Source of the DNA: a virus
Virus record (IMG/VR): IMGVR_UViG_3300022753_000060
Direction: 5' to 3' (one strand)
DNA: 64,000 nt
A model generated the notes under the pieces. That model saw only the letters and a list, made by a program, of their open reading frames with translations, was not told the DNA's origin and made no database searches. This document shows, piece after piece, positions 1 through 28,110 of this stretch; position 1 is the first letter of the stretch; every line of letters begins with the position of its first letter. The translations under genes and the position numbers were made by a program.

Positions 1-1
1 A

Positions 2-208: not shown

Positions 209-315
209 TGAAAAAAGAGCCAAAAATGAAATACACCGATATGTGCATTTATATTGATAAATGAATATATACGGACAATTATGATGCAGATATCATATTT
301 GATTATTTATATAAA

Positions 316-1640: not shown

Positions 1641-1641
1641 T

Positions 1642-1950: not shown

Positions 1951-1956
1951 AATAAA

Positions 1957-3106: not shown

Positions 3107-3120
3107 AGGAGAATAAAAAA

Positions 3121-3525
3121 ATGAAACAAACAATTAGACAAAATACTTTTGAAACGAATAGTAGTTCTGTACATAATATGGTAGTTATTCCTGAAAGTAA
3201 AATGGAAGCGTGGGAGAATAACGAACTATATTATGCTAGATATGTATGGGGAAAAGAAGTAAAAGAATTTGTTAAGAAAAATAATGGTAGATTATTGTAT
3301 ACCAAACAAGAACTTATAGATTCTGGAATGTTTGATGATATGCCAAAAAGGGAAGATTTTGAAGATGAATATGAGTTCGAAGATGCAATAGAAGAATATT
3401 TTGATGATAGTGATTTTGTAACTGCTGATAAATGGTCAAGAGAATTGGAAGAAGATGAGCATATTTATATAACAGAATCTGGTGAAAAATTACATATAAT
3501 TTGTCAATATGGTTATGAAGGATAG
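3121..3525 (+). CDS. MKQxIR-TFETNSSSxHS family protein (paralog 2)
   Basis: N-terminus MKQTIRQNTFETNSSSVHNMVV; RBS aaggaga upstream. Confidence 0.6.
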   Translation: MKQTIRQNTFETNSSSVHNMVVIPESKMEAWENNELYYARYVWGKEVKEFVKKNNGRLLYTKQELIDSGMFDDMPKREDFEDEYEFEDAIEEYFDDSDFVTADKWSRELEEDEHIYITESGEKLHIICQYGYEG

Positions 3526-5850: not shown

Positions 5851-5973
5851 TATTTAATATGTTAATATGAGTTTCGTAAACCAGAGTGCTTCTAAACATC
5901 TCTGGTTTTTATTGTTTAATAATACATTCAAATAACATTTTAATATAAATAAAAATTTTTTAAAAAATATGTG

Positions 5974-6011
5974 AAATTTAGTTTACTTTTTAATTTTAAT
6001 AGTATATAATA
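5974..6011 (+). promoter_or_regulatory. class-A promoter/terminator motif AAATTTAGTTTACTTTT-N(16-18)-TATAAT (copy 1 of 8)
   Basis: Other copies at about 29753, 32671, 34974, 40126, 46293, 48591 and 54984. Several are preceded by inverted partner AAAGTAAACT, forming a hairpin, and followed by a T-run. Confidence 0.45.
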
Positions 6012-6046
6012 ATTATGTAATTAAAATTAAAAAGGAGAAATTAAAT

Positions 6047-6472
6047 ATGGCAAAATGGTATGGAAGTGTAAACAATAGGTTAGAAGAAAATAAAATGTTC
6101 TGTGATAAAATAGAAGTAGGAACATTGTTAACTGAGTATTTCTACAGTGATTGTCATCCGTACGAAGTAGTTGAAGTTATAAGTCAAACACATGTAAAAG
6201 TAAGAGCTTTAGATTATAAACCAGCAGGCCCTGCAATGAGCAATGATTGGGAACTTGTACGCAACTTTAACAACTCAGTGGTAGAATTAAAAAAGCGTTA
6301 TGGTTTTTGGAATTGGGTTAAACGTTGGAAAAAAGAAGACTTAAAAACTTGCTATGTATTTCCAAAAAATAAAATTTATGATAAGCTTATTAAAGACGGT
6401 ATTGCTGTAGAATATATAAGAACAAATATAAGCTTTGGAGTTGGAGAATATTATTATGACTACACAAAATAA
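6047..6472 (+). CDS. hypothetical protein
   Basis: 141-aa ORF downstream of TTTAC..TATAAT promoter motif and RBS aaaggaga. Confidence 0.5.
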   Translation: MAKWYGSVNNRLEENKMFCDKIEVGTLLTEYFYSDCHPYEVVEVISQTHVKVRALDYKPAGPAMSNDWELVRNFNNSVVELKKRYGFWNWVKRWKKEDLKTCYVFPKNKIYDKLIKDGIAVEYIRTNISFGVGEYYYDYTK

Positions 6473-6734
6473 AGCCATATATTTAAGAACAGAATATGTA
6501 AAAGATAAGTTTAGGCCCTATAAGATTAAATATTATTCTTATAGAGGCCAGACTTACTGGCTTGAATTTGATTTAACTGGATTCTATCTAGGGATGCACC
6601 ATTCAGTGAGAGGTGCTCATATATATCATCAATCTCAGATAGATGATCAGCTAGACAGAATACAAGTTTCAGTAGAAGATGCAGAAGTTGGATTTAATTT
6701 GTTTTATGACTATTGTGAAGGAAAACTAGATTAA
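6435..6734 (+). CDS. hypothetical protein
   Basis: 99-aa ORF overlapping upstream gene end. Confidence 0.4.
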   Translation: MELENIIMTTQNKAIYLRTEYVKDKFRPYKIKYYSYRGQTYWLEFDLTGFYLGMHHSVRGAHIYHQSQIDDQLDRIQVSVEDAEVGFNLFYDYCEGKLD

Positions 6735-6790
6735 TTACTGTATATATTTATGAGCTAATAACAACGATACTATATTAGCAAGGAGATAAA

Positions 6791-6985
6791 TTGAAAGAAA
6801 ATTTTAAATGTCCGAAATGTAGAAAAATGATAAAAGTCGGTAAAAAATTGCATGCTAGCTACACATGCCCAAACTGCCATAATCAAATGCTAATTTCTAA
6901 AGAAGAAAGGCAACAAGGAAAACTTAATTTTAAACCGAATTTTTTCTTGCATGATAGAAATACTAAACAAGTATATTCTCATTAA
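6791..6985 (+). CDS. zinc-ribbon protein
   Basis: CPKC...CPNC pair; RBS aaggaga; TTG start assumed. Confidence 0.4.
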   Translation: MKENFKCPKCRKMIKVGKKLHASYTCPNCHNQMLISKEERQQGKLNFKPNFFLHDRNTKQVYSH

Positions 6986-7073
6986 AATTTGATATGGGAA
7001 AACAAGGGAGAATAGGTAATATATATATCAAAATTCAATAACAGATTTTTATAAAGAAGCTACTAATACTGGT

Positions 7074-7337
7074 ATGGAAAGATTCTTATTATTTTTACAA
7101 GATTCTATATATGATTTAGAAGTTAATGGTAAGCAATTCGATCCTGATTATTTAGTCTTATCAGCTGCATTTTTTGTTGAATATATAAAGATATGTAAGA
7201 AAGAAGACACAGCTAAATCTATGCCAAAGCGATATGTAAATAACGCAATAAAGAAAGTTCGTCGTAGACAATGTACTTTGCTAGAATGTTATAAATCATT
7301 TTTTCCTAAATATTTTTTAAATTTTACAATAAAATAG
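7074..7337 (+). CDS. hypothetical protein
   Basis: 87-aa ORF. Confidence 0.4.
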   Translation: MERFLLFLQDSIYDLEVNGKQFDPDYLVLSAAFFVEYIKICKKEDTAKSMPKRYVNNAIKKVRRRQCTLLECYKSFFPKYFLNFTIK

Positions 7338-7389
7338 TTTACTTTTAGAGATAATTTATTATATAATAATGTATATAAAGGAGAATCAT

Positions 7390-7614
7390 ATGAAAACTAT
7401 TTTAGAAGAATCTGAGTTGAGATCAGAATTATTGATAGAATTAAAAGGCTATAGGAAATTAGATAAAAACGTACCGCTTTATGAGAAAGGATATCATCAA
7501 TTGTTTGGAACATCATTACGCACAATGACTAGTTCGCAGATAAACGATATGCTTATATTTATAACTAATATGAGGTTGTGTTACGAAAATAGAAATTTAA
7601 ACTGTATATTATAA
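7390..7614 (+). CDS. hypothetical protein
   Basis: ORF track starts 7369, but RBS aaggagaa precedes ATG at 7390. Confidence 0.4.
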   Translation: MKTILEESELRSELLIELKGYRKLDKNVPLYEKGYHQLFGTSLRTMTSSQINDMLIFITNMRLCYENRNLNCIL

Positions 7615-7619
7615 TGTAA

Positions 7620-7940
7620 GGTCTTTTTCAGCCAAATAAAGGTAGACCTAAATGGATAGCGATGCTTTGGAACTTATAGTTTAAGGTAATTTAGGTGAGT
7701 TAAGTTATATCTAAAAATCAAGATGCAGACTATCGCTCCCAAGACAGAGAGAATTAAAGAATAAAGTATTTGGAATCATTTATATCTTAAGCTGTCAGAT
7801 ATAAATGATTGAGATCTATACGGACAGTATTCGCGAATGGCACCCAGGAAAGACTGGGGTATACGGATATAAGATCTTAAGGTAAGAGCCCTGAGTAAGG
7901 GAAGTGTCGGTTCGATTCCAACTATATCCCAAATTAATTA
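7620..7940 (+). ncRNA. candidate structured non-coding RNA with tRNA-like 3' module (7865-7930)
   Basis: No ORF. 3' part folds as acceptor GGATATA/TATATCC with T-arm GTCGG-TTCGATT-CCAAC, but only ~66 nt with a degenerate anticodon arm. Upstream 250 nt is rich in short helices (e.g. CCCAGGAAAGACTGGGG). Confidence 0.3.
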
Positions 7941-7994
7941 TAAGTAGCTACATAAAAGAGAATTAATTGACACTCTGGAAAGACAGAGATGCAT

Positions 7995-8113
7995 GGCAAG
8001 GTAGCTCAGCAGGAGAGCGCGTAATAATTGAATCTTGTAGAAAAGATTTGTAACTGCAACTCTAAAAAGGTCTTTTAAACCCGTGGTCGTTGGTGCAAAT
8101 CCAACCCTTGCCT
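7995..8113 (+). tRNA. tRNA-like gene with ~45-nt insertion (identity unresolved)
   Basis: Acceptor GGCAAGG/CCTTGCC, D-arm GCTC-AGCAGGA-GAGC, T-arm GTTGG-TGCAAAT-CCAAC, but ~70 nt between D- and T-arms instead of ~22. No CCA encoded. Confidence 0.4.
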
Positions 8114-8315
8114 CAATTAGTTTATTATATTCCATACTGTAATAAACTTTTTATGTTTTTATATATTTAAGGATTTTAATTAGTTTTTATTCATTAATTC
8201 TTTATTATCTCCTTATATGGTTCAATAAGATATAAAAACATATACTTTTGCCTATCTAAAAGTTTTGGCTAGTCTTTCAGATAGTTGCTTAGCTCTTTAA
8301 AACTAGCTGCGTTAT

Positions 8316-8452
8316 GCAGATATGGCGGAATAGGTAGACGCAAAGGACTTCTTCAATATAGGAACGAAAGTTACGAGTTCAATTCTCGTGTTGAAGACCA
8401 AAAATCCCTCGGTAGCAATATCGTATCGGTTCGACTCCGATTATCTGCACCA
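8316..8452 (+). tRNA. tRNA-like gene (Leu-type D-arm) with ~45-nt insertion; internal CAA-loop hairpin
   Basis: Acceptor GCAGATA/TATCTGC + A + CCA; D-arm TGGCGGAATAGGTAGACGC (class II/Leu-like); T-arm ATCGG-TTCGACT-CCGAT; internal hairpin ACGAG-TTCAATT-CTCGT. Total 137 nt. Confidence 0.4.
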
Positions 8453-8806
8453 TTACAATTAGATAAATCTTTAAAGTAGAAGATAATAGAAATATCAAAT
8501 CGTGTTCCAATCGCTACGTATTTCTGCCTACTTTAGAAGAGATTTAGCGGTCTCAAATTTCCTAAGTGTTTAGTAAGCATTGGTTGCAAGAAAGAGATTT
8601 AATTTAATTGTATTATATAAATAGATAAAGTCCAGATTAGACCCAATGAGTAATTTGAGGATGAGAGGTTTGGTTGTTGGCCGCAACTCCTAGGCGAAGA
8701 GATTGTCAGTAATAGAAGGAATTCTATTATCACTCACAAATTACAAGAGTTTGAGTATCATCAATTAGAGATAGGTTAGTGGCGCTCTATTATCTATTTG
8801 TTATAT

Positions 8807-8881
8807 TCCTCGGTAGCTCAGCGGTGGAGCACTCGGCTGTTAACCGATAGGCCGTCCGTTCGAATCGGACCCGGGGAGCCA
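8807..8881 (+). tRNA. tRNA-Asn(GTT)
   Basis: Cloverleaf: acceptor TCCTCGG/CCGGGGA, anticodon loop CTGTTAA, T-loop GTTCGAATC, CCA encoded. Confidence 0.8.
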
Positions 8882-9085
8882 TTAATAAGAAATAAATCCG
8901 ATAATACCAAGTTCTATTAGAAAGGTATTTACTCTAATTAATATGTGAGTTAATTAGATAGAGTAGTTCACAGTGGTTAATAGTTTCTTATTAAGCCAGG
9001 ATAGTTAAACAAGCAAATAATGGGTCTGTCGTGGGAATAACTAAAAACCCAAATGTGTCCTTTTGCGTTAAGGTTAAACGCACAA

Positions 9086-9160
9086 TGCGAATTAACTCAA
9101 TGGTAGAGTGGCTGCTTCATACGCAGTAAGTTATAGGTTCGAGTCCTGTATTCGCAACCA
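9086..9160 (+). tRNA. tRNA-Met(CAT)
   Basis: Acceptor TGCGAAT/ATTCGCA, D ACTC-AATGGTA-GAGT, anticodon stem GCTGC/GCAGT, loop TTCATAC, CCA encoded. Confidence 0.75.
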
Positions 9161-9419
9161 TAACCCTCTAACGACGGTTAGATAAAAATGCAGATGGGTT
9201 CGACATGACTTTGTGAGTTTCAAAGTAAAATCTCCGTTCCTTATGTAGAAAGCGGTAGGGTACATACGTTTTTAGAATTTTGACGAGACAAAAAGGTGCA
9301 CAAAAGTGGGAAGTTTGTATATTTGATGTTACACTATAAAACTGATAATAATAATTGATAAATCGAGTTTATATAATTTGAATAAACCAACCTATCATAT
9401 TATATAAAATATACTTTAT

Positions 9420-9495
9420 CCGAATGTAGGTCAGTTGGTAGACTGCGTGGTTTGGGACCATGAGGTCGGGGGTTCGAGTCCCTCCATTCGGACCA
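9420..9495 (+). tRNA. tRNA-Pro(TGG)
   Basis: Acceptor CCGAATG/CATTCGG, anticodon loop TTTGGGA, T-loop GTTCGAGTC, CCA encoded. Confidence 0.8.
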
Positions 9496-9497
9496 AT

Positions 9498-9573
9498 GCT
9501 TCCATGGCGCAATTGGCAGCGCAACTGACTTGTAATCAGTAGGTTGTCCGTTCGACTCGGACTGGAAGCTCCA
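9498..9573 (+). tRNA. tRNA-Thr(TGT)
   Basis: Acceptor GCTTCCA/TGGAAGC, D GCGC-AATTGGCA-GCGC, anticodon stem ACTGA/TCAGT, loop CTTGTAA, CCA encoded. Confidence 0.8.
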
Positions 9574-9882
9574 TAGGTGCTAATACCTTAGAGAATATAT
9601 TTAAGTGTACATAAAATATATTGATATTAAATTAGAAATTTGTGTATGGGTGCTACGAAGCCAAGGGACACATTACTTCAAGATGTTGCTCCTAAAATCG
9701 TGATTATATAATCAGTAAAAATCTCGAAGGGAAATGGTGCGGAAACAGCAGCTGTAGTTAAATGGAGTTAGATGAACTGCCCAAACACAATTAGACCTGC
9801 CTTGGATGATGGTCTATAAAATAAAAATGTAACGTCCAAGACCGTGGACCCTTAGCTCAGTTGGTTAGAGCTACCGGCTCAT

Positions 9883-10333
9883 CAAGAAGATTAAGAGGTA
9901 TTATATGGAAGAGAGTGCTGTTAAAGGAAATTGCGCTGAGCTTGCTTCAATGCATTATTTACAAAGTTTAGGTTGCGGAATATCAATTCCTTTTGGTTCA
10001 CTTAGATATGATTTTATTATTGATTATAAAAATAAATTATATCGTATCCAATGTAAAAGCGGAAAGTTAAAAAATAATGATGAATACTTGTATGTTCAAT
10101 TAACTTCCGGTAATAACAAAAGAGTAAAATTTTATGATGATTCAGAAATTGATTTCTTCTGTACAGCGATCGCTGGAAAATGTTATCTTTTGCCTAAAGA
10201 GGAAATTAAAACAAGAACATTTACGTTGAGATTAGTTGAACCAAAAAATAAACAAGAGCTCGGAATACATATGGCGCAAGATTACTTAGCTGATAAGATT
10301 CTTTCTTCCTTAAAATAAGCTCAATCGATGATG
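9883..10333 (+). mobile_element. putative group I intron in tRNA anticodon loop carrying homing-endonuclease ORF
   Basis: Insertion between anticodon positions 36/37; 5' splice after U, last intron nt G; contains 137-codon ORF 9905-10318. Confidence 0.5.
9905..10318 (+). CDS. intron-encoded small endonuclease, PD-(D/E)xK-like (I-Ssp6803I-like architecture)
   Basis: 137 aa with candidate active-site pattern E12 ... D36 (YDFIID) ... Q49-C-K51 (RIQCK). Lies within the tRNA(CAT) intron. Confidence 0.4.
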   Translation: MEESAVKGNCAELASMHYLQSLGCGISIPFGSLRYDFIIDYKNKLYRIQCKSGKLKNNDEYLYVQLTSGNNKRVKFYDDSEIDFFCTAIAGKCYLLPKEEIKTRTFTLRLVEPKNKQELGIHMAQDYLADKILSSLK

Positions 10334-10376
10334 AACCGGTTGGTCCGGGGTTCGAGTCCCTGAGGGTCCACCACAT

Positions 10377-10461
10377 GGGATGTTTGTCTAGCGGCAATGA
10401 CCTGAGACTGTAAATCTCATCTCTTCGGAGTTCGGTGGTTCGAGTCCATCACATCCCACCA
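10377..10461 (+). tRNA. tRNA-Tyr(GTA)
   Basis: Acceptor GGGATGT/ACATCCC, anticodon stem TGAGA/TCTCA, loop CTGTAAA, long variable arm, CCA encoded. Confidence 0.75.
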
Positions 10462-10723
10462 TTATATCTAGGTTAAATATTAGACCAGCCCGATATGGAT
10501 ACGGGAAAGTATAGGTGTAAATCCTATGGTATAAATAAGTACTTATCAACTTATAGTCAAAAGATAGGTGGTTTCATTAAGTACCAGAGATATGTCTCGA
10601 ATAAAGAGCTTAATCGATTGCGAATGTATCATATGTTAAGTTGCAGGTAAAGCTTGTAATCCAAAATAGCAAGTCGTATCAGTCTTATATTGTTAGTGAG
10701 GTGACTCCACATAGACATTTATA

Positions 10724-10799
10724 TAGCGGGGTGGAGAAGATGGAATCTCGTCGGACTCATTATCCGAAGGTCACTGGTTCGAGCCCAGTCCCCGCAACC
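10724..10799 (+). tRNA. tRNA(CAT), third CAU species (possible initiator-type, 1:72 mismatch)
   Basis: Acceptor AGCGGGG/CCCCGCA (A1xA72 mismatch), D GAGA-AGATGGAA-TCTC, anticodon stem TCGGA/TCCGA, loop CTCATTA, CCA encoded. Confidence 0.65.
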
Positions 10800-10802
10800 A
10801 TT

Positions 10803-10878
10803 TGTTCTCATAGTATAAGGGATTAGTACAAGGGTCTTCTAAACCTTAAATCTTGGTTCGAATCCAGGTGGGAACACC
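10803..10878 (+). tRNA. tRNA-Arg(TCT)
   Basis: Acceptor GTTCTCA/TGGGAAC, anticodon stem AGGGT/ACCTT, loop CTTCTAA, CCA encoded. Confidence 0.75.
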
Positions 10879-10881
10879 ATA

Positions 10882-10955
10882 TAGGCTTTTAGTTTAAAGG
10901 TAGAACAACAGACTTTGACTCTGTAGGTGGTAGTTCGATTCTATCAGAGCCTGCC
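10882..10955 (+). tRNA. tRNA-Gln(TTG)
   Basis: Acceptor AGGCTTT/AGAGCCT, anticodon stem ACAGA/TCTGT, loop CTTTGAC, CCA encoded. Confidence 0.75.
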
Positions 10956-11073
10956 ATTTCTTATATCTATTCCTTATTACGCGAGAGTTAGTCATTAAGG
11001 TGAGAATCAAGTACGATATAAGAATGTAACCATCGGCGGCGTAGTGGTAACTCAATAGGTGGTTACAAATTTT

Positions 11074-11147
11074 AGGCCCTTAGTTTAAAGGTAAAACTAT
11101 GGTCTCCAAAACCATTGTTGGAAGTTCGAGTCTTTCAGGGCCTGCCA
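11074..11147 (+). tRNA. tRNA-Trp(CCA)
   Basis: Acceptor AGGCCCT/AGGGCCT, anticodon stem ATGGT/ACCAT, loop CTCCAAA, CCA encoded. Confidence 0.75.
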
Positions 11148-11150
11148 AAT

Positions 11151-11224
11151 GCGACATTGGTGTAGTGGTAACATTCCTGCCTTCCAAGCAGTTGTCGTCG
11201 GTTCAAATCCGACATGTCGCTCCA
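11151..11224 (+). tRNA. tRNA-Gly(TCC)
   Basis: Acceptor GCGACAT/ATGTCGC, anticodon loop CTTCCAA, T-loop GTTCAAATC, CCA encoded. Confidence 0.7.
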
Positions 11225-11228
11225 ATAT

Positions 11229-11304
11229 AGGAGAGTGGCCAAATGGTTAAGGTTTCTGTCTGATACACAGAAGATTATAGGTTCAAGTCCTATCTCTCCT
11301 ACCA
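11229..11304 (+). tRNA. tRNA-Ile(GAT)
   Basis: Acceptor AGGAGAG/CTCTCCT, anticodon stem TCTGT/ACAGA, loop CTGATAC, CCA encoded. Confidence 0.75.
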
Positions 11305-11307
11305 TAT

Positions 11308-11383
11308 GCCTGGATAGCCTAGTTGGTCAAGGCAGTGGACTGAAAATCCACCCATCTTAGTTCGATTCTAAGTCCAGGCACCA
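11308..11383 (+). tRNA. tRNA-Phe(GAA)
   Basis: Acceptor GCCTGGA/TCCAGGC, D-arm AGCCTAGTTGGTCAAGGC, anticodon stem GTGGA/TCCAC, loop CTGAAAA, CCA encoded. Confidence 0.8.
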
Positions 11384-11386
11384 TGT

Positions 11387-11477
11387 GGTAAGTTGGGTGA
11401 ATGGTTAAACCAGCAGTTTGCTAAACTGCCGTAGGAAGCAATTTCTACTATTAGTTCGAATCTAATACTTACCGCCA
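11387..11477 (+). tRNA. tRNA-Ser(GCT)
   Basis: Acceptor GGTAAGT/ACTTACC, anticodon stem GCAGT/ACTGC, loop TTGCTAA, long variable arm, CCA encoded. Confidence 0.75.
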
Positions 11478-11483
11478 AAATAT

Positions 11484-11559
11484 GGCTCTATCGTCTAATT
11501 GGCTAGGACAGCACGCTTTCAATGTGCAAACAGGAGTTCGAATCTCCTTAGAGCTACCA
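11484..11559 (+). tRNA. tRNA-Glu(TTC)
   Basis: Acceptor GGCTCTA/TAGAGCT, anticodon stem GCACG/TGTGC, loop CTTTCAA, CCA encoded. Confidence 0.7.
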
Positions 11560-11562
11560 CGT

Positions 11563-11651
11563 GGAGAGTTACCAAAGCGGTCGTACTGGGATGGTCTTGA
11601 AAACCATTTGTCTGTAAGGGCACGGGGGTTCGAATCCCTCACTCCCCGCCA
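11563..11651 (+). tRNA. tRNA-Ser(TGA)
   Basis: Acceptor GGAGAGT/ACTCCCC, anticodon stem ATGGT/ACCAT, loop CTTGAAA, long variable arm, T-arm GGGGG-TTCGAAT-CCCTC, CCA encoded. Confidence 0.7.
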
Positions 11652-11859
11652 AGCCTGTTAGGAATGTGCACTTAAAACTAATGTTATGAATCCTAACTTT
11701 AAAAGCAGATGTTTTGGCTGTCTGATTTCAGAGTACAGATAAAACTCTTGTCCTTTCCTTGGGAGATAAAGGAGCTTCTTAATACTTGTCTTGACAGCTA
11801 AAAGATAATATCAATGTTCCTAACGCATTTATTTGAAGGTATATAAAGTTAGGGTATAT

Positions 11860-11936
11860 GGTCCGTTAGTTCAGTTGGTTAGAACGTCTGCCTGTCACGC
11901 AGAAGGTCAGCGGTTGAAGTCCGCTACGGATCGCCA
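11860..11936 (+). tRNA. tRNA-Asp(GTC)
   Basis: Acceptor GGTCCGT/ACGGATC, D GTTC-AGTTGGTTA-GAAC, anticodon stem TCTGC/GCAGA, loop CTGTCAC, CCA encoded. Confidence 0.8.
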
Positions 11937-13389: not shown

Positions 13390-14895
13390 ATGACATTTTT
13401 ACAAGGATTAAAAAATGAATTAAATACCTCAACCACAGAAAATGGTGCAAAAGGGTATGCTGCTACTGGTAAAGCATTATTAGACTTTAACTTTAAAATA
13501 TCTTCATTTAGGGATTCAAGTGAAGAAGAAATTGAGATAGAATTTAAAAAAGCATGGTTTGAAAACAAAGAACTCGCTCTTAAATACCTATTCTATGCTA
13601 GAGATGCAAGAGAAGGTTTAGGAGAAAGAAGACTATTTAGAACATGTGTAACTGAAATTATAGATGAATTAGATGAAAGAGTATTTGATTGGATTGTTGA
13701 ATTTGGTAGATACGATGATTTATTTGTTTTCTTTGGTACTAAACTAGAAAAACAAATGCTTGAATACGTAAAAACCCAATTGAGAAAAGATGCTAAAAAT
13801 CTTGTTAATAAAGAGCCTATATCATTATTAGCTAAATGGATGCCATCAATAAATACATCTTCAAGCGAAACAAAACGAAAAGCAAGGAGAATTAAATCTT
13901 ATTTAGGAATGTCAGAAAAAGATTATAGAAAAATGCTTTCTGATTTAAGAAACCATTTAGATGTGTTAGAAAGAAAATGTTCTTCAAATAAATGGGAAGA
14001 GATAAAATATGAAAATGTACCATCTCAAGCTAACATAAAATATATGGGGGCATTTTTAAGACATGATGAAGATAGAAGAAGAGATTATTTATCTAAACTT
14101 GAAAAAGGTGAGACAAAAATAAATGCTTCAACTCTATTCCCTCATGATATAGTTTGCAAGTATAGAAATTGTAGAAATAAAGATATCACATTAGAAGAAT
14201 TATGGAAATCTTTACCTGATTATGTTCAAGGAGATAGTTCAACTATAGTAGTTAGAGATGGTTCAGGTTCGATGACTTGTAATGTAGGAAAGACTAGCAC
14301 ATCTGCATTAGATGTTGCAACTGCATTATCTATTTATTTTGCAGAAAGATGTAAAGGTGAGTTTAAAGATAAATTTATCACTTTTTCGAATCAACCAAGA
14401 TTAGTTTCTTTTGAAAAATATGATAATTTAAAAGATAAATTAAATGTAGCTTATGCAGAAGCAGAGGTTGCTAATACTAATATTGAAGCTGTATTTGATT
14501 TAATATTAAAAACAGCAGTTAAAAATAATATGTCTCAAGAAGAGATACCAAATATTTTAATTATATCAGATATGGAATTTGATGAATGTGCTACAACAAA
14601 CGCAACAAGAACTAATAGATGGGATCATACTGCTCCAGATGCTAAATTATTTGATGCTATAAGACAAAGATATGAGAATGCAGGTTATAAATTACCTAAA
14701 ATGTCTTTCTGGAATGTTAATTCAAGAACAAAGACAATCCCAGTAATTCAAAATGATTTAGGGGTAGCTTTAGTATCAGGATTTAGTCCAGCAGTCGTAA
14801 ATATGGTTTTATCAAATGAAATAGATCCATATATAGCATTGCTAAAAGAAATAACTAAAGATAGATATGCAGAAATTACATTAAAAACTGTATAA
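13390..14895 (+). CDS. vWA-domain protein (DUF2828/TROVE-like)
   Basis: 501 aa; N-terminal TENGAKGY...ALLDFNFK; MIDAS-like DxSxS motif VRDGSGSMT; C-terminal ILIISDMEFDE. Confidence 0.4.
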   Translation: MTFLQGLKNELNTSTTENGAKGYAATGKALLDFNFKISSFRDSSEEEIEIEFKKAWFENKELALKYLFYARDAREGLGERRLFRTCVTEIIDELDERVFDWIVEFGRYDDLFVFFGTKLEKQMLEYVKTQLRKDAKNLVNKEPISLLAKWMPSINTSSSETKRKARRIKSYLGMSEKDYRKMLSDLRNHLDVLERKCSSNKWEEIKYENVPSQANIKYMGAFLRHDEDRRRDYLSKLEKGETKINASTLFPHDIVCKYRNCRNKDITLEELWKSLPDYVQGDSSTIVVRDGSGSMTCNVGKTSTSALDVATALSIYFAERCKGEFKDKFITFSNQPRLVSFEKYDNLKDKLNVAYAEAEVANTNIEAVFDLILKTAVKNNMSQEEIPNILIISDMEFDECATTNATRTNRWDHTAPDAKLFDAIRQRYENAGYKLPKMSFWNVNSRTKTIPVIQNDLGVALVSGFSPAVVNMVLSNEIDPYIALLKEITKDRYAEITLKTV

Positions 14896-15215: not shown

Positions 15216-15309
15216 AGGGGTGTACGATAATTGGAAGTCAAGCGGTCTTCAAAACCGTAACAATAGGTCTCCAAAACCTATAGCGCGGGTTCGATTCCTG
15301 CAACCCCTG
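15216..15309 (+). tRNA. candidate opal-suppressor tRNA(UCA), Trp-derived/Sec-like, with an extra CCA-loop hairpin; no CCA encoded
   Basis: Acceptor AGGGGTG/AACCCCT (6/7 bp), D-arm GATAATTGGAAGTC, anticodon arm GCGGT-CTTCAAA-ACCGT (anticodon TCA), extra hairpin TAGGT-CTCCAAA-ACCTA, T-arm GCGGG-TTCGATT-CCTGC. Sits in 550-nt ORF-free island. Confidence 0.5.
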
Positions 15310-15448
15310 GCTCAATGAGTAAGTACCTTCACGCTGGTTGAGCTGTTTTAACCAAACTTACTCATTTTAAGTAACTTAGCTTTGGTAATGGTGCACCTAC
15401 TAAGTTACCAGAGCTATTTAACTTAATATTATTAAAGGAGAAGAAAAG

Positions 15449-18994: not shown

Positions 18995-19285
18995 ATGGAT
19001 ATAAAGGAATATTTACAATCTTTGGGAATAAATAATAAGTTGCAGCAAGGAGAAGATAATTCATATGTAGCGCTAATAATGAACTCTAATGAGTTCGGTA
19101 AAATATTCTCAAAATTAGAAAATGCAGATGATCTAGAGCCATTAGAAGATAATCAAGTAGTGACAGAACAAGGTAGCTCATTAGTATATGAATCTATATC
19201 AGAACCATATATGTTAAACCTAATAGCTGATTTTGATGCAGATGTCTATAGTTTAATAATAAATTATATTGGGGACAAGCATTAA
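18995..19285 (+). CDS. hypothetical acidic protein
   Basis: 96-aa ORF, RBS agagaggtag. Confidence 0.4.
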   Translation: MDIKEYLQSLGINNKLQQGEDNSYVALIMNSNEFGKIFSKLENADDLEPLEDNQVVTEQGSSLVYESISEPYMLNLIADFDADVYSLIINYIGDKH

Positions 19286-20025
19286 TGTATATCTATAAAA
19301 TAACCAACAACTCAAATGGGAAAGTATACATTGGGAAGACAACTAAAAGTGTTGAGACCAGATATAACCAACACTTAAAAGCATCTGAAATATATGCTCA
19401 AGAACATAGAAATCTATCATTACTTTATGAGGCAATTAATAAATATGGTAAGTGTAATTTCGGTGTCGAGACAATTGACACTGCCTCTACTATAGAAGAG
19501 TTAAATAAGAAAGAGATTTATTGAATAAAGTTTTATAGAGACTCATTTGGCAAAGAGTTTTGTTACAATATGGCATCGGGTGGAGATGGTGGGGATACAA
19601 ACTCTGGCAAGACCCAATCAAAGGAATGGATAGCTAAACGCTTGGCTAGTAGAGAAACTTATGATGTATCAGATGAAACTCGTGAGAAACAAAGACTAGC
19701 ACATTTAAATCAAGTACCTTGGAATAAAGGCAAGAAAATGTCAGCAGAGTATTGTGAGAAATGTAGAGAACGGAGTAAAGGTAACACTAATCATTTAGGG
19801 CATAAAGCAACTGAATTACAGAGAAAGCGTATGAGTGACTCACATAAAGGTCAGATACCTTGGAATAAAGGTTTGAAGGGGTGTATTACCCAGTCAGAAG
19901 AAACAAAGAAAAAACGAGCAGATAAATTAAGAGGGACTATTGGTATTAATGATGGCACCAAAAATACTCGAGTACCTAAAGAATACTTAGACAAGTATTT
20001 AAATGCAGGATGGTCGATTGGTTGA
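19285..20025 (+). CDS. GIY-YIG homing endonuclease with NUMOD3-like repeats; contains in-frame TGA at 19522-19524 decoded as Trp
   Basis: ORFs 19285-19524 and 19570-20025 are in the same frame, split only by TGA. N-term YIYKITN..GKVYIGKT (GIY-YIG); around the TGA ..KKEIY[TGA]IKFYRDSFGKEFCYNMASGGDGG matches I-TevI ..ENFWIKEL..GYNI, so TGA falls on the conserved Trp. C-terminal half repeats QIPWNKGKK / QIPWNKGLK. Confidence 0.7.
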
Positions 20026-20552
20026 TTAAAGAAAAAATAGTATTTAATTCTAATCAAATAAAAGTTAAAGAGAGATTAGAAGAATCTTTAAGTAGCAGCA
20101 AACTAAATTTAAGTGAATACAATATAAAAGATATTTTGATAAATAACCCAGATTTATATAGAATATTATATGATGCTAGAATAGATAAGTATATGATAGG
20201 TAATTCATATGATATAATACATAGAGATTTAATAATAGATGCTTATAAGAAAGGTTATTATGAAAGTCAAAAAGATTTCATAGAAACTTTTGGCGCTATT
20301 GATAACTATATTGAAATAGGTTTAGATGGTTATTATAATAAAGAGTTAGTAAATGAAACCATTGAACCTTTTATGTATCCGTTAGTATTTATTCCAAAAG
20401 GTAAAGAAGAAGAGATAGACATAGAAGCTGCTGATGGTTATATAGAATTATTTGAATATGATTTTGGATATATCTTATCAAGAGAGAATGATTTTAGAGG
20501 AACAAGTTTGTATGATATATTAGTAGAACTAGTGTCAACTAAATACTTATAA
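20010..20552 (+). CDS. hypothetical protein
   Basis: 180-aa ORF. Confidence 0.45.
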   Translation: MVDWLIKEKIVFNSNQIKVKERLEESLSSSKLNLSEYNIKDILINNPDLYRILYDARIDKYMIGNSYDIIHRDLIIDAYKKGYYESQKDFIETFGAIDNYIEIGLDGYYNKELVNETIEPFMYPLVFIPKGKEEEIDIEAADGYIELFEYDFGYILSRENDFRGTSLYDILVELVSTKYL

Positions 20553-21910: not shown

Positions 21911-23158
21911 ATGAATAATAGAATAAGATTAGCAAGAGGGACTTCAGATAAAAGAAAAGCAAGTGACTTAGAAATAGTCCCAGGTCAATTATTTTTCGAG
22001 ACTGACACGAATTTATTATATTCAACTACCAACAATAAAAACACCCCTCTTAAAAATGCTACAAGTATTTATAATAAAAATTTTATAGTATCTCTAGATA
22101 AACCTATACATCAAGATAATTTTGATATGTGGGCTAGTTTTAATTCTATAATAGATTCTTTTATAGGGGATTGGATTGGAGAAACAGTTGTATCTTCTAC
22201 TAGAACAGATTTTATTAAATTTAAATATAACAACGCAGGTCAAGTATATTTCAATATAAGTTGGAATGGATATTATGGTCATACTATTTTAGTAGATGAT
22301 TCAAATCCTCCAATTTATTTTAAAACAGAAACTAATAAGTTGATATTTCATTTTAAATTTACTCACCCACAGACTACCCTTACATATTATGGTAGATTAA
22401 CTTTAAGTTCTGTTTCAGATAATGAGTCAATAAATGCCTTATACGAATATGATAACCCAATAAATGGTTGGGAATCTATACTTAATTTAAATTTACTTAA
22501 ACAAGAAGAAGATATAGAAGGCGATTTTGCGAATTTAGATTATTCTAAACCAGTTGCATTAATGTATAAATACAATGAGGACTATGTAAATTATGTGCCA
22601 GAATTGGCAACTAATGTTGTAAATGCAATAAGGAATAATGATGGAGAAAACAAAAGCTTAACTCTAAATAAAAATATATTGAATATAAATAATGCACCTT
22701 TAACTAACTATGATTATGACACAACAAACATACCTTATACAACATTATTATACACATTAGATTCTAGAGATGGTAATTATACCCCAGCAACTTTTTCTGA
22801 TAATTTATACATAAAATTAGGTCAGTATGAGAGTCTTAATATTGAATTGATGATTAGAAGTACTTATACTTCTAATGGTGAATCTTTTACTTCCACGCAT
22901 AAATTATCTTTTGATAATATAAATACTAGCACCTTTAGTTCAAGTTCTGTTTTAATACATAGTTACAATGAGGGAAATCAACTTATATCCTATATATTTA
23001 CATGTAGATTATATGATTATGATTCAGCAACTGGCACTTATAGAATTGATTTTGGTCATGATGCTGGAACATTGATTTGGAAAAATACAAGTGCTTCATC
23101 AGACTACACAAATACAATTTCGATAGATTCAAGCTCAGTTAAAAGAGTATTTAAATAA
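21911..23158 (+). CDS. hypothetical protein (N/Y/T/S-rich; possibly structural)
   Basis: 415-aa ORF, RBS caaggagac. Confidence 0.45.
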   Translation: MNNRIRLARGTSDKRKASDLEIVPGQLFFETDTNLLYSTTNNKNTPLKNATSIYNKNFIVSLDKPIHQDNFDMWASFNSIIDSFIGDWIGETVVSSTRTDFIKFKYNNAGQVYFNISWNGYYGHTILVDDSNPPIYFKTETNKLIFHFKFTHPQTTLTYYGRLTLSSVSDNESINALYEYDNPINGWESILNLNLLKQEEDIEGDFANLDYSKPVALMYKYNEDYVNYVPELATNVVNAIRNNDGENKSLTLNKNILNINNAPLTNYDYDTTNIPYTTLLYTLDSRDGNYTPATFSDNLYIKLGQYESLNIELMIRSTYTSNGESFTSTHKLSFDNINTSTFSSSSVLIHSYNEGNQLISYIFTCRLYDYDSATGTYRIDFGHDAGTLIWKNTSASSDYTNTISIDSSSVKRVFK

Positions 23159-23745
23159 TGAACAAGATACAATTAAATGGAATAATAAAAAATATAGAAT
23201 ATTCTCATTATATACAAGATATAGAATTTTATAAAGCTAATCTAATAACTAGAAGAGAAAATGGAAAAGAAGATATTATAAATTTAAAATTTAAAAAGTT
23301 TTCAAACCCATATAAAGAAAATCAAGAAATATCTATTCTAGGTAATATTAGAACTTTTAATAGACAAGAAGAAGATAGAAATAAAGTAGAATTATTTGTA
23401 TTTACTTATTTTGATGAAGCAGAAGAAAGTCCTAATAATCTCGCATACATAGATGGTAGAATATGTAAAAAGAATAATTTAAGAAAAACATCATCTGGAA
23501 AAGATGTTTTAGATTTTATATTAGCAAACAATATAGAAAATAATGGGCAAGTATTAAATGTATATTTACCTTGTGTTGCATGAGGGAAGTGTGCTAAGGC
23601 ATTAAATAAATTAAATGTTGGGGACAAGATTTTAATTCAAGGTCAATTACAATCGAGAGAGTATAAAAAGAGATTAACAGAAACTGATTATGAGATACGA
23701 GTTTGTCATGAACTGAGTGTAAATACTTTTGAAACTTTACAGTAA
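23158..23745 (+). CDS. ssb: single-stranded DNA-binding protein (OB fold) with in-frame TGA at 23581-23583 decoded as Trp
   Basis: ORF 23158-23583 ends at TGA; the same frame continues 54 codons to TAA 23743-23745. Junction ..YLPCVA[TGA]GKCAKALNKLNVGDKILIQGQLQSREYKK..TDYEIRVCHEL matches SSB core (B. subtilis ..CVTWRRQAEN..KGS...GRLQTR..), so TGA falls on the conserved Trp. Confidence 0.7.
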
Positions 23746-24226: not shown

Positions 24227-24429
24227 TGCAAGAAGAAATAATAAGAGATTTTTATGGTAAAATTATAGGTTATATTCAAACTGATGATAAAGGAAATAAA
24301 GTCATAAGAGATTTTTATCGTAGGATACTTGGTAGATATGATAAAGCATCTAATGTTACAAGGGATTTTTATGGTAGGATAATTGCTAGAGGGGATCAAG
24401 CTTCTGGCCTATTGTATAGAGGAAAATAA
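24226..24429 (+). CDS. small protein with three tandem RDFYG(K/R)II repeats
   Basis: IRDFYGKIIGYIQTDDKGNKV / IRDFYRRILGRYDKASNVT / RDFYGRIIARGDQASG. Confidence 0.4.
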   Translation: MQEEIIRDFYGKIIGYIQTDDKGNKVIRDFYRRILGRYDKASNVTRDFYGRIIARGDQASGLLYRGK

Positions 24430-24920
24430 TGAGATTTTTAAGAGAAAATTCAAACATAGCTTTATATCAAGAAATTTTAAATTTATTTGATAATCAAATA
24501 AGCTTTGGTTATTTTGGTGGGGCTGCTTATATACTGAAGGATGGTGAATATTTAAATATAGAGGAAGGATCTCACATGTGAGTAGATGATTTTCTTTATG
24601 ATAATAATTTAATAGAGACTTCACCATTCGAACTAGACAAACTTATTCTTATAGACGATTTTAATTGCATAAGAGTAAATGATGGAGTATTAACAGATTC
24701 AGATCCTTACATAGAATTACCTACGAAATTACCTACTTATTCTCAACTAGATACGTTAGAAAATTGGCTGACTAAATATCCTATTATATGAATAGGTATT
24801 AGAGGAGATAGAAAAGCTGGTAAGTATTTTAATACAAAAGATATTTTACCAGAAGATATTATAAAAAAGATAAAAAGATATTATAGTTCTGGTATATTAT
24901 ACGAGAATTATAAGATATAA
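24429..24920 (+). CDS. hypothetical protein with two in-frame TGA codons (24579-24581, 24789-24791)
   Basis: ATG overlaps upstream TAA; 163 sense codons to TAA 24918-24920 with no TAA/TAG; ..EGSHM[TGA]VDDFLYD.. and ..KYPII[TGA]IGIRGD... Absent from standard-code ORF track. Confidence 0.5.
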
Positions 24921-25014
24921 ATTCAAAGAAAAGGAGATATAGTAGTTCTTATGAACATTTAAAACGTTTATAAGAACTATTTTATTCACTGTATAAATCA
25001 TAAGGAGGATATCA

Positions 25015-28000
25015 ATGCAAATTATAAAACGAGATGGATCAAAGCAAAAATTTGATGAGTATAAAATATGGAAAGCAATATTAGGTTGTTTTGAAGATTG
25101 TTGTCCTAAAGGTGAGTATGTTAATGATGGTGTGATAACAGAATTAACAAATAAAGTAACACAACAATTAGATAAAAGAAAAAATTATACTGTAGAACAA
25201 ATTCAAGATATTGTAGAACTAACTTTGATGGAAGCTAATAAATATGAACAAGCAAAAGCATACATAGAATATAGACAATTACATAAACTAGCTAGAAATA
25301 GTTATACTGAACTAATGAATAAAGTTAAAGCTAAACTAGAAGCAAAGAATGTAGAAAATTCAAATGCAAACCTAGATGAAAATACTTTCAGTGGAAGAGA
25401 GAAAGAAGCATTTGGAACTATATTAAAAGAATATGCACTTAATAATTTAGTATCAGAAACTACTAGAAATAATCATATTAATAATGAAATTTATATACAT
25501 GATTTAGATGCTTATGCAAGTGGTATGCATAATTGTTTATCAATTCCTTTAGATGATTTATTAGCAAAAGGATTTAAAGTTAAACAGACAGATATAAGAC
25601 CTGCTGGAACAGTAAATACAGCGATGCAATTGTCAGCTGTTATAATGCAATTACAAAGTTTATGTCAATTTGGTGGTGTATCATATACTCACTTTGATTG
25701 GTCAATGGTCCCTTATGTAAGAAAGAGTTTTTATAAACATTATAAAGAAGGATTATATTGGTTCGGTAATGAAAAGTATTTAGAAGGAATTACAAAAGAA
25801 ACTTCTATAATTGACGAAAAATATAAACTAAATCAAGATGCTTATGAATATGCTATGAGACAAACTGAAAAAGAAACACATCAAGCAGTTGAAGCATTAT
25901 ATCACAATTTAAATTCATTACAATCAAGAAGTGGACAACAACTACCATTTAGCTCTATAAATTATGGAACTTGCACTTTACCAGAAGGTAGAATGATAAC
26001 AGAAGAATTGTTAAATGTATCTATTGAAGGTTTAGGAAAATATCATAGAACAAGTATATTCCCTTGTGGTATATTCCAGTGCATGAAAGGTGTTAACAGA
26101 AAACCGGGCGATCCAAATTATGACTTATTTAAGTTAGCATTAAAATCAACTTCAAAGAGATTGTATCCAAATTATGCCTCAGTTGATTGGAGTGGTAATG
26201 CAGGTTACGATGTAAATGATCCAAAAACATATTTTAGTACAATGGGTGCTTTGAGTGGTCATGAACATCTAACAGTTAAAATAGGAAATGAAGAACCTAT
26301 TGACTTATCTATCAGAGACTTATTTGATTATTGTAAAACAGATGATTTACAAAATTATAAGAAAACACAGATTTGGTATAACAGAGAAAAATTAAATGAA
26401 GAGCCTTTAGGTAGACATTATCAAGAAAAATCTGGATTACCTAATCTACCAGGTGTTTATTCAATAACTTATTTACCAGAAGATGTCACATATATTGGAA
26501 GTTCAAGTTCTATTTCTAGAAGATGCGCTGAGCATAAATGTGCTATAGGCAAAACAGGTGGGATTGATGCAGGAATAAATTTTGGGGATATTGATACAGC
26601 TAATTATGAATTTAAAGTATTAGAAATAACTGAAGATTATAAAGAAGCTGAAAACCTTTATATTCAAAAGAATGCAAATATAAATCCTAGAGGAACAGAT
26701 AAGAAATATTATAAGTTAATTACTCAAAAATCTAGGCATAGAGTATATGATAGACCTGTATTTAAAGTTGATTTGAGTAAAAAACAAGAATTGATTGATT
26801 TATCTGAATTTGATATTAAAGTATTAGATAGAGATAATAAATGGGTAAAGATCAAACATATCTTTAAAAATGATAAATTAAATACTCCGTATATGATGCA
26901 TATCTATTACAAAGAATACGATAAAGAATATTGTTTGTCTTGTACTGAAGATCACCCTCTATGGACAGGAGATAAATTTACAAGAGCAGATCAATTAAAA
27001 ATAGGTGATAAACTTTATAGAGCTGATAATTTAGAGTTAGAAATAACTGATATATGTTGGCATTGGGAAGCAGTTGATAGCTACGATATAGGTACTGAAA
27101 CTGGTTCATTTATAGGTTCAGATATTATAATGCATAACTGTAGAACTGCAAATGGTTGGGATATTAATGGTTTAAAACAACAAAAAGATGGTAGAGGAAA
27201 TATTGCACCTACTACTATTATATTACCAACAATAGCAATGAAATCTAAAGAATGTACAAGAGCTTCAGAAGAATCAGATATAGATGTATTTATGAGATTA
27301 CTTGAATGTAAAATAAATGAAGCAAAAGACTCTTTGATAGAAAGATTTGAGCATATCTGTAGCCAATCACCTAAATCAGCCCCATTTATGTATGAAAATA
27401 ACACAATGGCTGGTTATATTCCAGAAGAAGGAATTAGGAGTGCTTTAAAACATGGAACATTAGTTATAGGTCAATTAGGTCTTGCTGAATGTTTACAAAT
27501 ATTAATTGGAAAAGACCATACTACAAAAGAAGGTATGGAACTTGCTAAAAAGATAGAACAATTATTTAAAGATAAATGTGCTTATTTTAAAGAACAATAT
27601 AAATTAAATTTTGGTGTTTATTATACTCCTGCAGAATCTTTATGTAAAACTGCTATGACTAAATTTAAAGAAAAATATGGTATTATTCCAAATATATCTG
27701 ATAGAAAATATTTTACTAATTCAATGCATGTTCCAGTATACCATAACATAAATGCTTTTGATAAAATAGATATTGAAAGTCAATTAACAGGTTATTCTTC
27801 AGCTGGGTGTATTACTTATGTAGAATTAGATTCATCTTCAATTCATAATATAGAAGCTATTGAAAAATTAGTTAATTATGCTATGGATAAAGATATACCT
27901 TACTTTGCTATAAACGTACCAAATGATGTTTGTATGGACTGCGGACATCAAGAAGAAATGAATGATAAATGTCCAGAATGTGGTTCAGATAATATTGAAA

Positions 28001-28110
28001 GATTAAGAAGAGTTACAGGATATGTTTCTACAGATTATCATAATTTTAATGAAGGTAAGATAGCGGAAGTAGAAGATAGAGTCAAACACACAGGAGTTCC
28101 TATTGAATAA
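25015..28110 (+). CDS. nrdD: anaerobic ribonucleoside-triphosphate reductase (class III) with an in-frame intein-like insertion carrying a GIY-YIG domain
   Basis: N-terminal ATP-cone (IIKRDGSKQKFDEYKI); C-terminal Zn ribbon CMDCGH...CPECGS and glycyl-radical motif RRVTGYVS; RBS aaggagga. Confidence 0.85.
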   Translation: MQIIKRDGSKQKFDEYKIWKAILGCFEDCCPKGEYVNDGVITELTNKVTQQLDKRKNYTVEQIQDIVELTLMEANKYEQAKAYIEYRQLHKLARNSYTELMNKVKAKLEAKNVENSNANLDENTFSGREKEAFGTILKEYALNNLVSETTRNNHINNEIYIHDLDAYASGMHNCLSIPLDDLLAKGFKVKQTDIRPAGTVNTAMQLSAVIMQLQSLCQFGGVSYTHFDWSMVPYVRKSFYKHYKEGLYWFGNEKYLEGITKETSIIDEKYKLNQDAYEYAMRQTEKETHQAVEALYHNLNSLQSRSGQQLPFSSINYGTCTLPEGRMITEELLNVSIEGLGKYHRTSIFPCGIFQCMKGVNRKPGDPNYDLFKLALKSTSKRLYPNYASVDWSGNAGYDVNDPKTYFSTMGALSGHEHLTVKIGNEEPIDLSIRDLFDYCKTDDLQNYKKTQIWYNREKLNEEPLGRHYQEKSGLPNLPGVYSITYLPEDVTYIGSSSSISRRCAEHKCAIGKTGGIDAGINFGDIDTANYEFKVLEITEDYKEAENLYIQKNANINPRGTDKKYYKLITQKSRHRVYDRPVFKVDLSKKQELIDLSEFDIKVLDRDNKWVKIKHIFKNDKLNTPYMMHIYYKEYDKEYCLSCTEDHPLWTGDKFTRADQLKIGDKLYRADNLELEITDICWHWEAVDSYDIGTETGSFIGSDIIMHNCRTANGWDINGLKQQKDGRGNIAPTTIILPTIAMKSKECTRASEESDIDVFMRLLECKINEAKDSLIERFEHICSQSPKSAPFMYENNTMAGYIPEEGIRSALKHGTLVIGQLGLAECLQILIGKDHTTKEGMELAKKIEQLFKDKCAYFKEQYKLNFGVYYTPAESLCKTAMTKFKEKYGIIPNISDRKYFTNSMHVPVYHNINAFDKIDIESQLTGYSSAGCITYVELDSSSIHNIEAIEKLVNYAMDKDIPYFAINVPNDVCMDCGHQEEMNDKCPECGSDNIERLRRVTGYVSTDYHNFNEGKIAEVEDRVKHTGVPIE
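26248..27138 (+). other. intein-like (Hint) element within nrdD, class-2-like (Ala1, +1 Cys), carrying GIY-YIG endonuclease domain
   Basis: Starts ALSGHEHLTVKIGNEEPIDLSIRDLF (block A-like, Ala replacing Cys1). Contains GVYSITYLPEDVTYIGSS...RRCAEH (GIY-YIG). Ends ..GSDIIMHN followed by extein Cys (MG|...|CRTANGW). Confidence 0.55.

Follow-up and report, generated by a model that had tools for sequence, protein, structure and literature searches.

An in-frame TGA in a phage SSB gene and a Trp-type tRNA(UCA) with an anticodon-like variable arm

The SSB gene and its in-frame TGA

The window analyzed here is a 64,000-nucleotide stretch of a phage genome (IMG/VR record IMGVR_UViG_3300022753_000060), and our subject is its gene for a single-stranded DNA (ssDNA)-binding protein (SSB), together with the transfer RNA that would decode a TGA codon lying within it. 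With 10 kb of flanking DNA on either side, the part of the 154-kb genome examined comes to ~84 kb. The SSB frame opens with an ATG at 23158, closes with a TAA at 23743-23745, and holds one in-frame TGA in between. The locus comprises the following features.

21911-23158, + strand: hypervariable gene upstream of SSB, 415 amino acids (aa), whose TAA overlaps the SSB ATG (TAATG)
23158-23745, + strand: SSB gene, encoding a tandem two-OB-fold protein of 195 aa with TGA decoded as Trp (PF00436, PF22657, PHROGs, AlphaFold2 model)
23581-23583, + strand: in-frame TGA, codon 142, the sole Trp codon of the SSB gene (homolog alignment)
23584-23742, + strand: 53 codons that would be made only via read-through (they cover the helix and the final two strands of the second OB fold, OB2)

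The initial annotation had proposed that a complete SSB requires read-through of this TGA, and profile comparisons bear this out. The 195-aa read-through product matches PF22657 at 34.1 bits and PF00436 at 55.9 bits (E 4.9e-15), the latter in a single alignment of residues 97-184 that spans the TGA, against 19.4 bits with PF00436 for the truncated 141-aa product, which falls under the gathering cut-off of 26 bits. The codons after the TGA do align to the SSB model, since their 53 residues alone match positions 61-99 of PF00436 (24.2 bits, E 3.6e-5). The open frame behind the SSB TGA is not a matter of chance. Of 1513 TGA triplets on the + strand, only 23 (1.5%) precede a stop-free run of at least 53 codons, and TGAs with at least 40 open codons on each side number only five in the 64 kb of that strand.

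The TGA had also been taken to stand for a conserved Trp, and the homologs agree. A search of a protein collection returned 863 SSB homologs, nearly all of 190 to 210 aa, and in alignments of 28 and of 42 homologs every full-length sequence carries Trp at the TGA column (...PCVAWGK..., 42/42 in the larger alignment); three database entries end exactly at this column. In a profile search of the PDB, the column corresponds to the Trp of B. subtilis SsbA "FINCVTWRRQAENV" (PDB 6bhw).

Among related phage lineages, designated here by L numbers, the codon for W142 varies. It is TGA in the window lineage, whose sequence recurs in >30 assemblies (mostly contigs of 50 to 200 kb, the longest ~154 kb), and likewise in L004 (96% protein identity), L003 (75%), L009 (67%), and L011 (67%); in L007/L008 (75% protein identity) it is a plain TGG. 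In 31 farther IMG/VR relatives (34 to 56% identity, 29 to 39% GC), the site is a TGG-encoded Trp, a Phe, or a Tyr, and many of them terminate the SSB gene with a true TGA stop and are therefore standard-code. The window adds a recoded Trp codon that has been kept in lineages whose proteins are 67 to 100% identical. With TGA in five of six lineages and an A-ending share of ~82% expected from mutation bias alone, this persistence appears to be what AT mutation bias predicts once TGA is tolerated, with no evidence of specific selection. The better fit is that SSB belongs to a TGA-tolerant class of genes, rather than that TGA is specifically selected in SSB.

The ratio of nonsynonymous to synonymous substitution rates (dN/dS) over 47 post-TGA codons in six close lineages is 0.04 to 0.22, with dS ranging from 0.8 to saturated, which points to codons that are translated and under strong purifying selection. 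No in-frame ATG, GTG, or TTG was found after the SSB TGA; therefore, the C-terminal part cannot be made separately, and its independent translation was rejected. Nor did we find a stable or conserved hairpin 3' of the TGA in four lineages (folding z, -0.55 to +0.17). Both a selenocysteine insertion sequence (SECIS) and a read-through stimulator are therefore excluded, and structure-stimulated read-through was rejected as well.

An AlphaFold2 model built from 42 sequences (mean pLDDT, 92) places tandem OB folds at residues 1-87 and 95-193. In this model W142 closes the strand 131-142 and precedes the helix 143-150, and we assign it as the conserved aromatic, a DNA-contacting residue in the SSB family, that is predicted to end strand 3 of the second OB domain. 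A stop at codon 142 would delete that helix and the final two strands of OB2, in line with the truncation of the OB fold that had been anticipated, and the 141-aa product would retain the whole N-terminal OB domain (1-87). The top PDB matches found with Foldseek are the two-OB SSBs of Deinococcus and Thermus (TM-score, 0.71 to 0.78 over the whole model); fold matches to solved SSBs reach a probability of 1.0, and ordinary bacterial SSBs match the second domain. PHROGs assigned the protein to phrog_44 (SSB), with a full-length match to phrog_26861. An acidic C-terminal tip of the D-D-D-I-P-F type is absent, the protein ending in ...SVNTFETLQ right after the OB domain. Taken at its full length, the frame at 23158-23745 would encode a functional two-OB-fold protein for which ssDNA binding is predicted; we attach to this the same confidence as to the decoding explanation as a whole, given below.

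A Trp-type tRNA(UCA) as the probable decoder

A candidate for decoding the SSB UGA lies 8 kb upstream of the gene, apart from an array of 16 tRNAs. Three features are relevant here.

11074-11147, + strand: tRNA-Trp(CCA), an ordinary phage tRNA within the 16-tRNA array at 8807-11936
15216-15309, + strand: opal suppressor tRNA(UCA), class-II-like, with an apparent Trp identity (ARAGORN, Rfam); anticodon at 15249-15251
15263-15281, + strand: variable-arm hairpin of tRNA(UCA), with a Trp-anticodon-like loop

ARAGORN reads the anticodon of the tRNA at 15216-15309 as tca and labels it "SeC"; its best Rfam match, with lower-scoring overlapping matches to families of the same clan left aside, is RF00005 (38 bits, cut-off 29). 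The tRNA has a 7-bp acceptor stem and a D stem of 3 to 4 bp, and an ortholog is present in L009. Its acceptor carries A1-U72, G2-C71, G3-C70, G4-C69, and G5-C68, followed by the discriminator G73. The pair A1-U72, the pairs of G2-G5 with C68-C71, and G73 are determinants of bacterial tRNA-Trp (PMC9976931). Furthermore, 13 of 13 phage tRNA(UCA) tested in an E. coli extract inserted Trp (10.1101/2025.10.30.685624). Because of this Trp-type acceptor with G73, and because the phage tRNA(UCA) so tested insert Trp, we infer on good grounds that this tRNA would decode the SSB UGA as Trp.

We therefore favor, with a probability of roughly 0.8, the reading in which the UGA encodes the sole Trp (W142) of a functional SSB and is decoded by the phage's own Trp-type tRNA(UCA) in a host that uses the standard code. 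The phage would infect such a host and bring with it an opal suppressor bearing the bacterial tRNA-Trp identity set; once charged with Trp, tRNA(UCA) would outcompete release factor 2 at the UGA, yielding full-length SSB. Without it, translation would stop after residue 141, and the product would lack the OB2 helix and the last two strands. The standard-code host itself is suggested by the large excess of TGG over TGA and by the presence of a suppressor encoded by the phage.

Some observations weigh against this reading. The imperfect pairs G7.A66 and C10.A25 in tRNA(UCA) suggest that it is possibly a weak suppressor, and the binning of related contigs with metagenome-assembled genomes (MAGs) of Acholeplasmatales and Bacilli is a weak hint as to the host. 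In addition, coverage of the + strand by open reading frames (ORFs) of at least 100 aa rises from 80.3% to 83.1% under code 4, a gain too small for a genome-wide code-4 call on density alone.

The suppressor tRNA looks more unusual than the SSB gene, and its Trp-anticodon-like variable arm may be new. The true anticodon arm reads GCGGU-CUUCAAA-ACCGU. The second hairpin, in the variable arm, pairs over 6 bp and is capped by CUCCAAA, the same loop that holds the anticodon of tRNA-Trp(CCA); indeed, 13 nt (GGUCUCCAAAACC) are identical between the tip of this arm and the anticodon arm of the tRNA-Trp(CCA) in the window. In the L009 ortholog (2588-2683), both loops are kept and the second stem is wholly different.

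The motif recurs in other phages. In a first scan of IMG/VR, queried with the anticodon arm only, UCCAA was present within the variable region of all class-II-like, non-tRNA-Sec-like tRNA(UCA) (21/21, one of them cut at the end of its locus). The 18 examined closely, including those of the window and L009, all place N-UCCAA-N in the loop of a variable-arm hairpin and have the discriminator G73, and the motif is missing from the five tRNA-Sec-like tRNA(UCA) that scanning recovered (5/5). A broader pattern scan brought the total to 52 distinct phage tRNA(UCA) with the motif, closed by 37 different 4-bp stems; every one of them has G73, and their anticodon and acceptor stems are diverse. The loops recorded are CUCCAAA and GUCCAAA, from sources that include L029-L067 and L100-L172. 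The exact 7-nt loop is closed by at least 4 bp in 37 of the 52, compared with 2.5% when the flanks are shuffled. The second scan required TCCAAA, so that there the placement in a hairpin loop, and not the presence of the motif, is independent evidence.

The most economical reading of these comparisons is that the variable arm is a pseudo-anticodon, which would give tryptophanyl-tRNA synthetase (TrpRS) the C34-C35-A36 identity lost from the UCA anticodon. We propose more tentatively, and at rather less than even odds, that the SSB UGA and other sense UGAs are decoded by an undescribed natural derivative of tRNA-Trp with two anticodon arms, on which synthesis of SSB would depend. Alternatively, the RNA might switch which of the two hairpins acts as the anticodon arm. 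In the searchable literature, outside of which subscription-only papers fall, we found no description of a natural anticodon-like variable arm in suppressor tRNAs, only an engineered analogue.

Other elements surround the tRNA(UCA) gene. A DUF2828/DUF7788 gene lies just upstream of it in two lineages (13390-14895 in the window; 674-2056 in L009, with the tRNA at ~2590-2683). The tRNA was considered as a Y-RNA-like partner of this gene, an idea that we set aside, as its topology and acceptor ends are those of a normal tRNA and it shows no match to the Rfam YrlA family. Directly 3' of the tRNA is a conserved element (15310-15375 in the window, 2684-2750 in L009) found only in these two lineages. 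Two helices, GCTCAA...TTGAGC and GAGTAAGT...ACTTACTC, are interleaved in it and show compensatory changes in L009; both copies carry ACCTTCACG, and the element looks like a pseudoknot. Elsewhere, at 8316-8449, lies a class-II tRNA with a Leu-like D arm and a hairpin insertion of ~50 nt within the anticodon loop (Rfam tRNA, 38.5 bits), which ARAGORN finds in intron mode only. A group I intron would be much longer than this insertion, and moving the boundaries by one base would make the anticodon UAA.

Sparse recoding and rival readings of the UGA

The window has a GC content of ~27% and a GC skew that is positive throughout, with ORFs covering 80% of the + strand and 5% of the - strand. Under code 4 it contains 85 ORFs of at least 80 aa, which end in TAA (68) or TAG (17), and none needs a TGA stop. 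Some 10 sense TGA codons are found against 182 TGG, so that TGA makes up ~5% of Trp codons, and the two-fold pairs AAR, GAR, and CAR are 80 to 86% A-ending. Most genes thus strongly avoid TGA, and a few tolerate it. Internal TGAs occur in ~8 of the 85 ORFs, which, in addition to SSB, are the following.

g208: internal TGA at 262
g1633: internal TGA at 1714
19285-20040, + strand: GIY-YIG/NUMOD3 homing endonuclease; internal TGA at 19522, near-terminal TGA at 20023
24429-24920, + strand: ORF with two internal TGAs (24579, 24789); a single 163-aa gene for code-4 callers in L005
28148-28732, + strand: formate/nitrite-transporter (FNT)-like gene; internal TGA at 28622
61298-63022, + strand: 575-aa protein with a rubrerythrin-like C terminus; internal TGA at 62771
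g63525: internal TGA at 63570

In two of these genes a family alignment runs across the TGA. The GIY-YIG alignment from Pfam (residues 1-86) crosses TGA codon 80 of the homing endonuclease, a site that is a TGG-encoded Trp in five of six homologs, and the PF01226 alignment of the FNT-like gene (96.7 bits, residues 7-179) crosses TGA codon 159. Possible terminal TGAs are confined to at most three genes (20023, 31006, and 54239), with a TAA or TAG four sense codons later, and the respective gene ends read wLKKK*, wKNNT*, and wLKGL*; these TGAs may be former stops now backed by a second stop. RecA, the clamp-loader subunits, and SbcCD, encoded just upstream of the window, contain no TGA, and neither do the RNA-repair and nucleotide-metabolism genes at 29 to 61 kb (RlaP, CCA-adding enzyme, RNA ligase, polynucleotide kinase, DNA ligase, a PARP-like protein, and NrdD). 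The window is therefore a clear example of very sparse, gene-specific recoding. No structural module lies within it or its 10-kb flanks.

The regions 33142-53368 and 57900-59369 hold a TGA-free set of RNA/tRNA-repair and auxiliary genes, which includes a polynucleotide kinase/HD protein, an ATP-dependent DNA ligase, and a protein of 489 aa that has a Cu/Zn superoxide dismutase domain at its N terminus. In NrdD (24997-28110, 1037 aa), an in-frame GIY-YIG nuclease domain at residues 486-561 splits the NRDD domain, which is uninterrupted in L009 (733 aa) and L011 (641 aa).

The sparseness of TGA bears on the possibility that UGA means Trp in the host's own code (code 4, as in Mycoplasma), in which case no phage suppressor would gate the SSB gene. 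The very AT-rich genome, the near absence of TGA as a stop, and the placement of related contigs in Mollicutes-like MAG bins are all compatible with such a host. Acholeplasmatales, on the other hand, are known to use the standard code. Moreover, TGA holds only its ~5% share of Trp codons despite the A-ending bias of comparable pairs, the phage carries a tRNA(UCA) of its own besides tRNA-Trp(CCA), and close relatives use TGA as a true stop, with another using TAG as a sense codon. The proportion of ORFs with internal TGA is also far from the ~90% of genes in phages of code-4 hosts (Borges et al., 10.1101/2021.08.26.457843). We consider a code-4 host unlikely.

Equally improbable, in our view, is that the UGA is a leaky stop read at a low level by the host tRNA-Trp(CCA), independently of tRNA(UCA), and serves as an attenuator or as a source of both 141- and 195-aa products. 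Low-level read-through of UGA as Trp is known in Bacillus subtilis, and the N-terminal OB domain would be whole in the short product. Such a mechanism would leave unexplained the dedicated Trp-identity tRNA(UCA) conserved in L009, and no structure that would stimulate read-through lies 3' of the UGA. In addition, a stop is evidently not required at this position, given the plain TGG in one lineage, and genes with many TGAs (14 in one L009 gene) could not be made in this way.

A pseudogene or truncated SSB, with the downstream frame as a relic, would agree with the output of standard-code gene callers, which truncate this SSB to a 141-aa product (P0006) that lacks a Pfam match and is found on 26 contigs. 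We regard this as very improbable and effectively refuted by the dN/dS values of the downstream codons, with dS saturated; the frame is also intact in five independent TGA lineages and in the >30 assemblies with the same sequence, and the 1.5% of TGA triplets that precede such an open stretch speaks in the same direction. Least probable of all, and effectively refuted, is selenocysteine insertion at a U-G-K-C motif through a tRNA-Sec, as the ARAGORN label, the long variable arm, and the local U-x-x-C might suggest, since the site is Trp, Phe, or Tyr in homologs and never Cys, no SECIS-like hairpin is found in four lineages (z, ~0), and tRNA(UCA), with its 7-bp Trp-type acceptor, short D stem, and top Rfam match to the general tRNA model, lacks the 8-bp acceptor and 6-bp D stem of a tRNA-Sec and looks different from the genuine tRNA-Sec-like sequences of the scan.

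The neighborhood of SSB was also compared among related genomes. The gene directly upstream encodes 343 or 415 aa in near-identical genomes (L001/L002:1754-3001 at the same position). In L009 (6546-9047) it encodes an 833-aa LRR_5 protein, likely a surface protein, with 14 TGA and 3 TGG codons, within an uninterrupted TGA-using stretch (5899-11006) whose last members are the SSB gene and the ORF after it; in L011 (8208-9983) it encodes an unrelated protein of 591 aa with 10 TGA and 11 TGG. In both lineages it is the most TGA-rich gene seen. Deformylase and RlaP are TGA-free in L009 and L011, and NrdD has no TGA in L009 and two in L011. A sister lineage, L173 (JAGCWW010000043.1, 126.7 kb, from an Acholeplasmatales MAG bin; region 1-4576), instead reads TAG as sense, with six in-frame copies in its SSB ortholog, which terminates at a TAA, and eight in the upstream ORF. 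One of the SSB TAGs stands at the position of a Gln in homologs, which indicates code 15. The phage family thus holds standard, TGA-recoded, and TAG-recoded members, and SSB recurs among the genes in which a reassigned stop is accepted. A search of GenBank phages returned no close relative, with only nrdD matched (66% identity).

These neighbors also bear on when SSB is made. The initial annotation called it an early or middle replication gene, which is an assumption; the gene lies outside the replication module, RecA, the clamp loader, and SbcCD being encoded just upstream of the window. The TGA-rich upstream genes and the TAG-recoded sister suggest that SSB belongs to a class translated while the suppressor is active and not to the earliest class, and the TGA might delay SSB synthesis until then. 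A scan for promoters and terminators over 14.8 to 25.1 kb gave 60 sites, against 70 expected from shuffled sequences, and is silent on timing.

Comparison with known systems

The SSBs of Deinococcus and Thermus (PDB 1se8, 3udg, 2fxq, and 2cwa) likewise have two tandem OB folds per chain. The phage protein differs from them in its length (~195 aa against 260 to 300), in its low identity (14 to 18%), in the lack of an acidic tail, and in its assignment to a separate family (PF22657 plus PF00436; phrog_26861). Its second OB domain aligns with B. subtilis SsbA (6bhw) and S. aureus SsbA (5xgt) at 25 to 28% identity, the TGA column being the Trp of "CVTW" in the former and a Phe in the latter. These SsbA proteins differ in that they are single-OB homotetramers with a C-terminal tail and are encoded in the standard code.

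The stop-codon recoding described here is real, and it is of a kind already known. Borges et al. (10.1101/2021.08.26.457843) described gut phages (the Jade, Sapphire, and Agate clades) that recode TGA to Trp on standard-code hosts; the same work reported a standard-code relative with a TGA suppressor in which TGA stops amount to 2.7%, an Agate genome size of ~154 kb, and variable recoding of replication genes. The general claim of the initial annotation, that recoding extends beyond late structural genes, is therefore already in the literature. Like those phages, the window phage is a large, AT-rich gut/rumen phage with TGA at Trp positions and a phage tRNA(UCA), and its ~154 kb is near the Agate genome size. 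It also shares with these clades the near loss of TGA as a stop, a homing endonuclease with TGA, and a mixture of standard, TGA, and TAG codes. It differs in that recoding is sparser (~8 of 85 ORFs, compared with 26 to 71% of genes) and in that the recoded genes seen are nonstructural, the likeness being drawn from ~84 kb. Since TGA has been dropped as a stop and a suppressor is present, with sense TGA in a few genes only, the reassignment of TGA to Trp seems here to be at an early stage or kept in check. Recoding this sparse escapes coding-density tests (80% versus 83%). The window also supplies specific genes on which the "code switch during infection" model could be tested, with SSB TGA-tolerant across diverged lineages.

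With the tRNA-Trp(UCA) of code-4 bacteria and the phage tRNA(UCA) tested in vitro, the suppressor of the window has in common its UCA anticodon, its apparent Trp identity, and G73. It differs from canonical tRNA-Trp, which is class I with a variable loop of 4 to 5 nt, in its length of 94 nt and its long variable arm. The closest analogue is engineered: in the tRNAs of Mukai 2020 (PMC7590224), a variable-arm hairpin likewise mimics an anticodon arm, and this pseudo-anticodon recruits the anticodon-binding domain of a synthetase while the true anticodon reads a stop codon. Those constructs combine a synthetic allo-tRNA with HisRS and need an appended binding domain, whereas the phage design is natural, Trp-specific, and widespread, its function being putative. 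If functional, the pseudo-anticodon would explain charging by an unmodified host TrpRS and would be useful for genetic-code engineering; phages would then have solved the charging of an opal suppressor in a way for which synthetic biology has so far been the only precedent.

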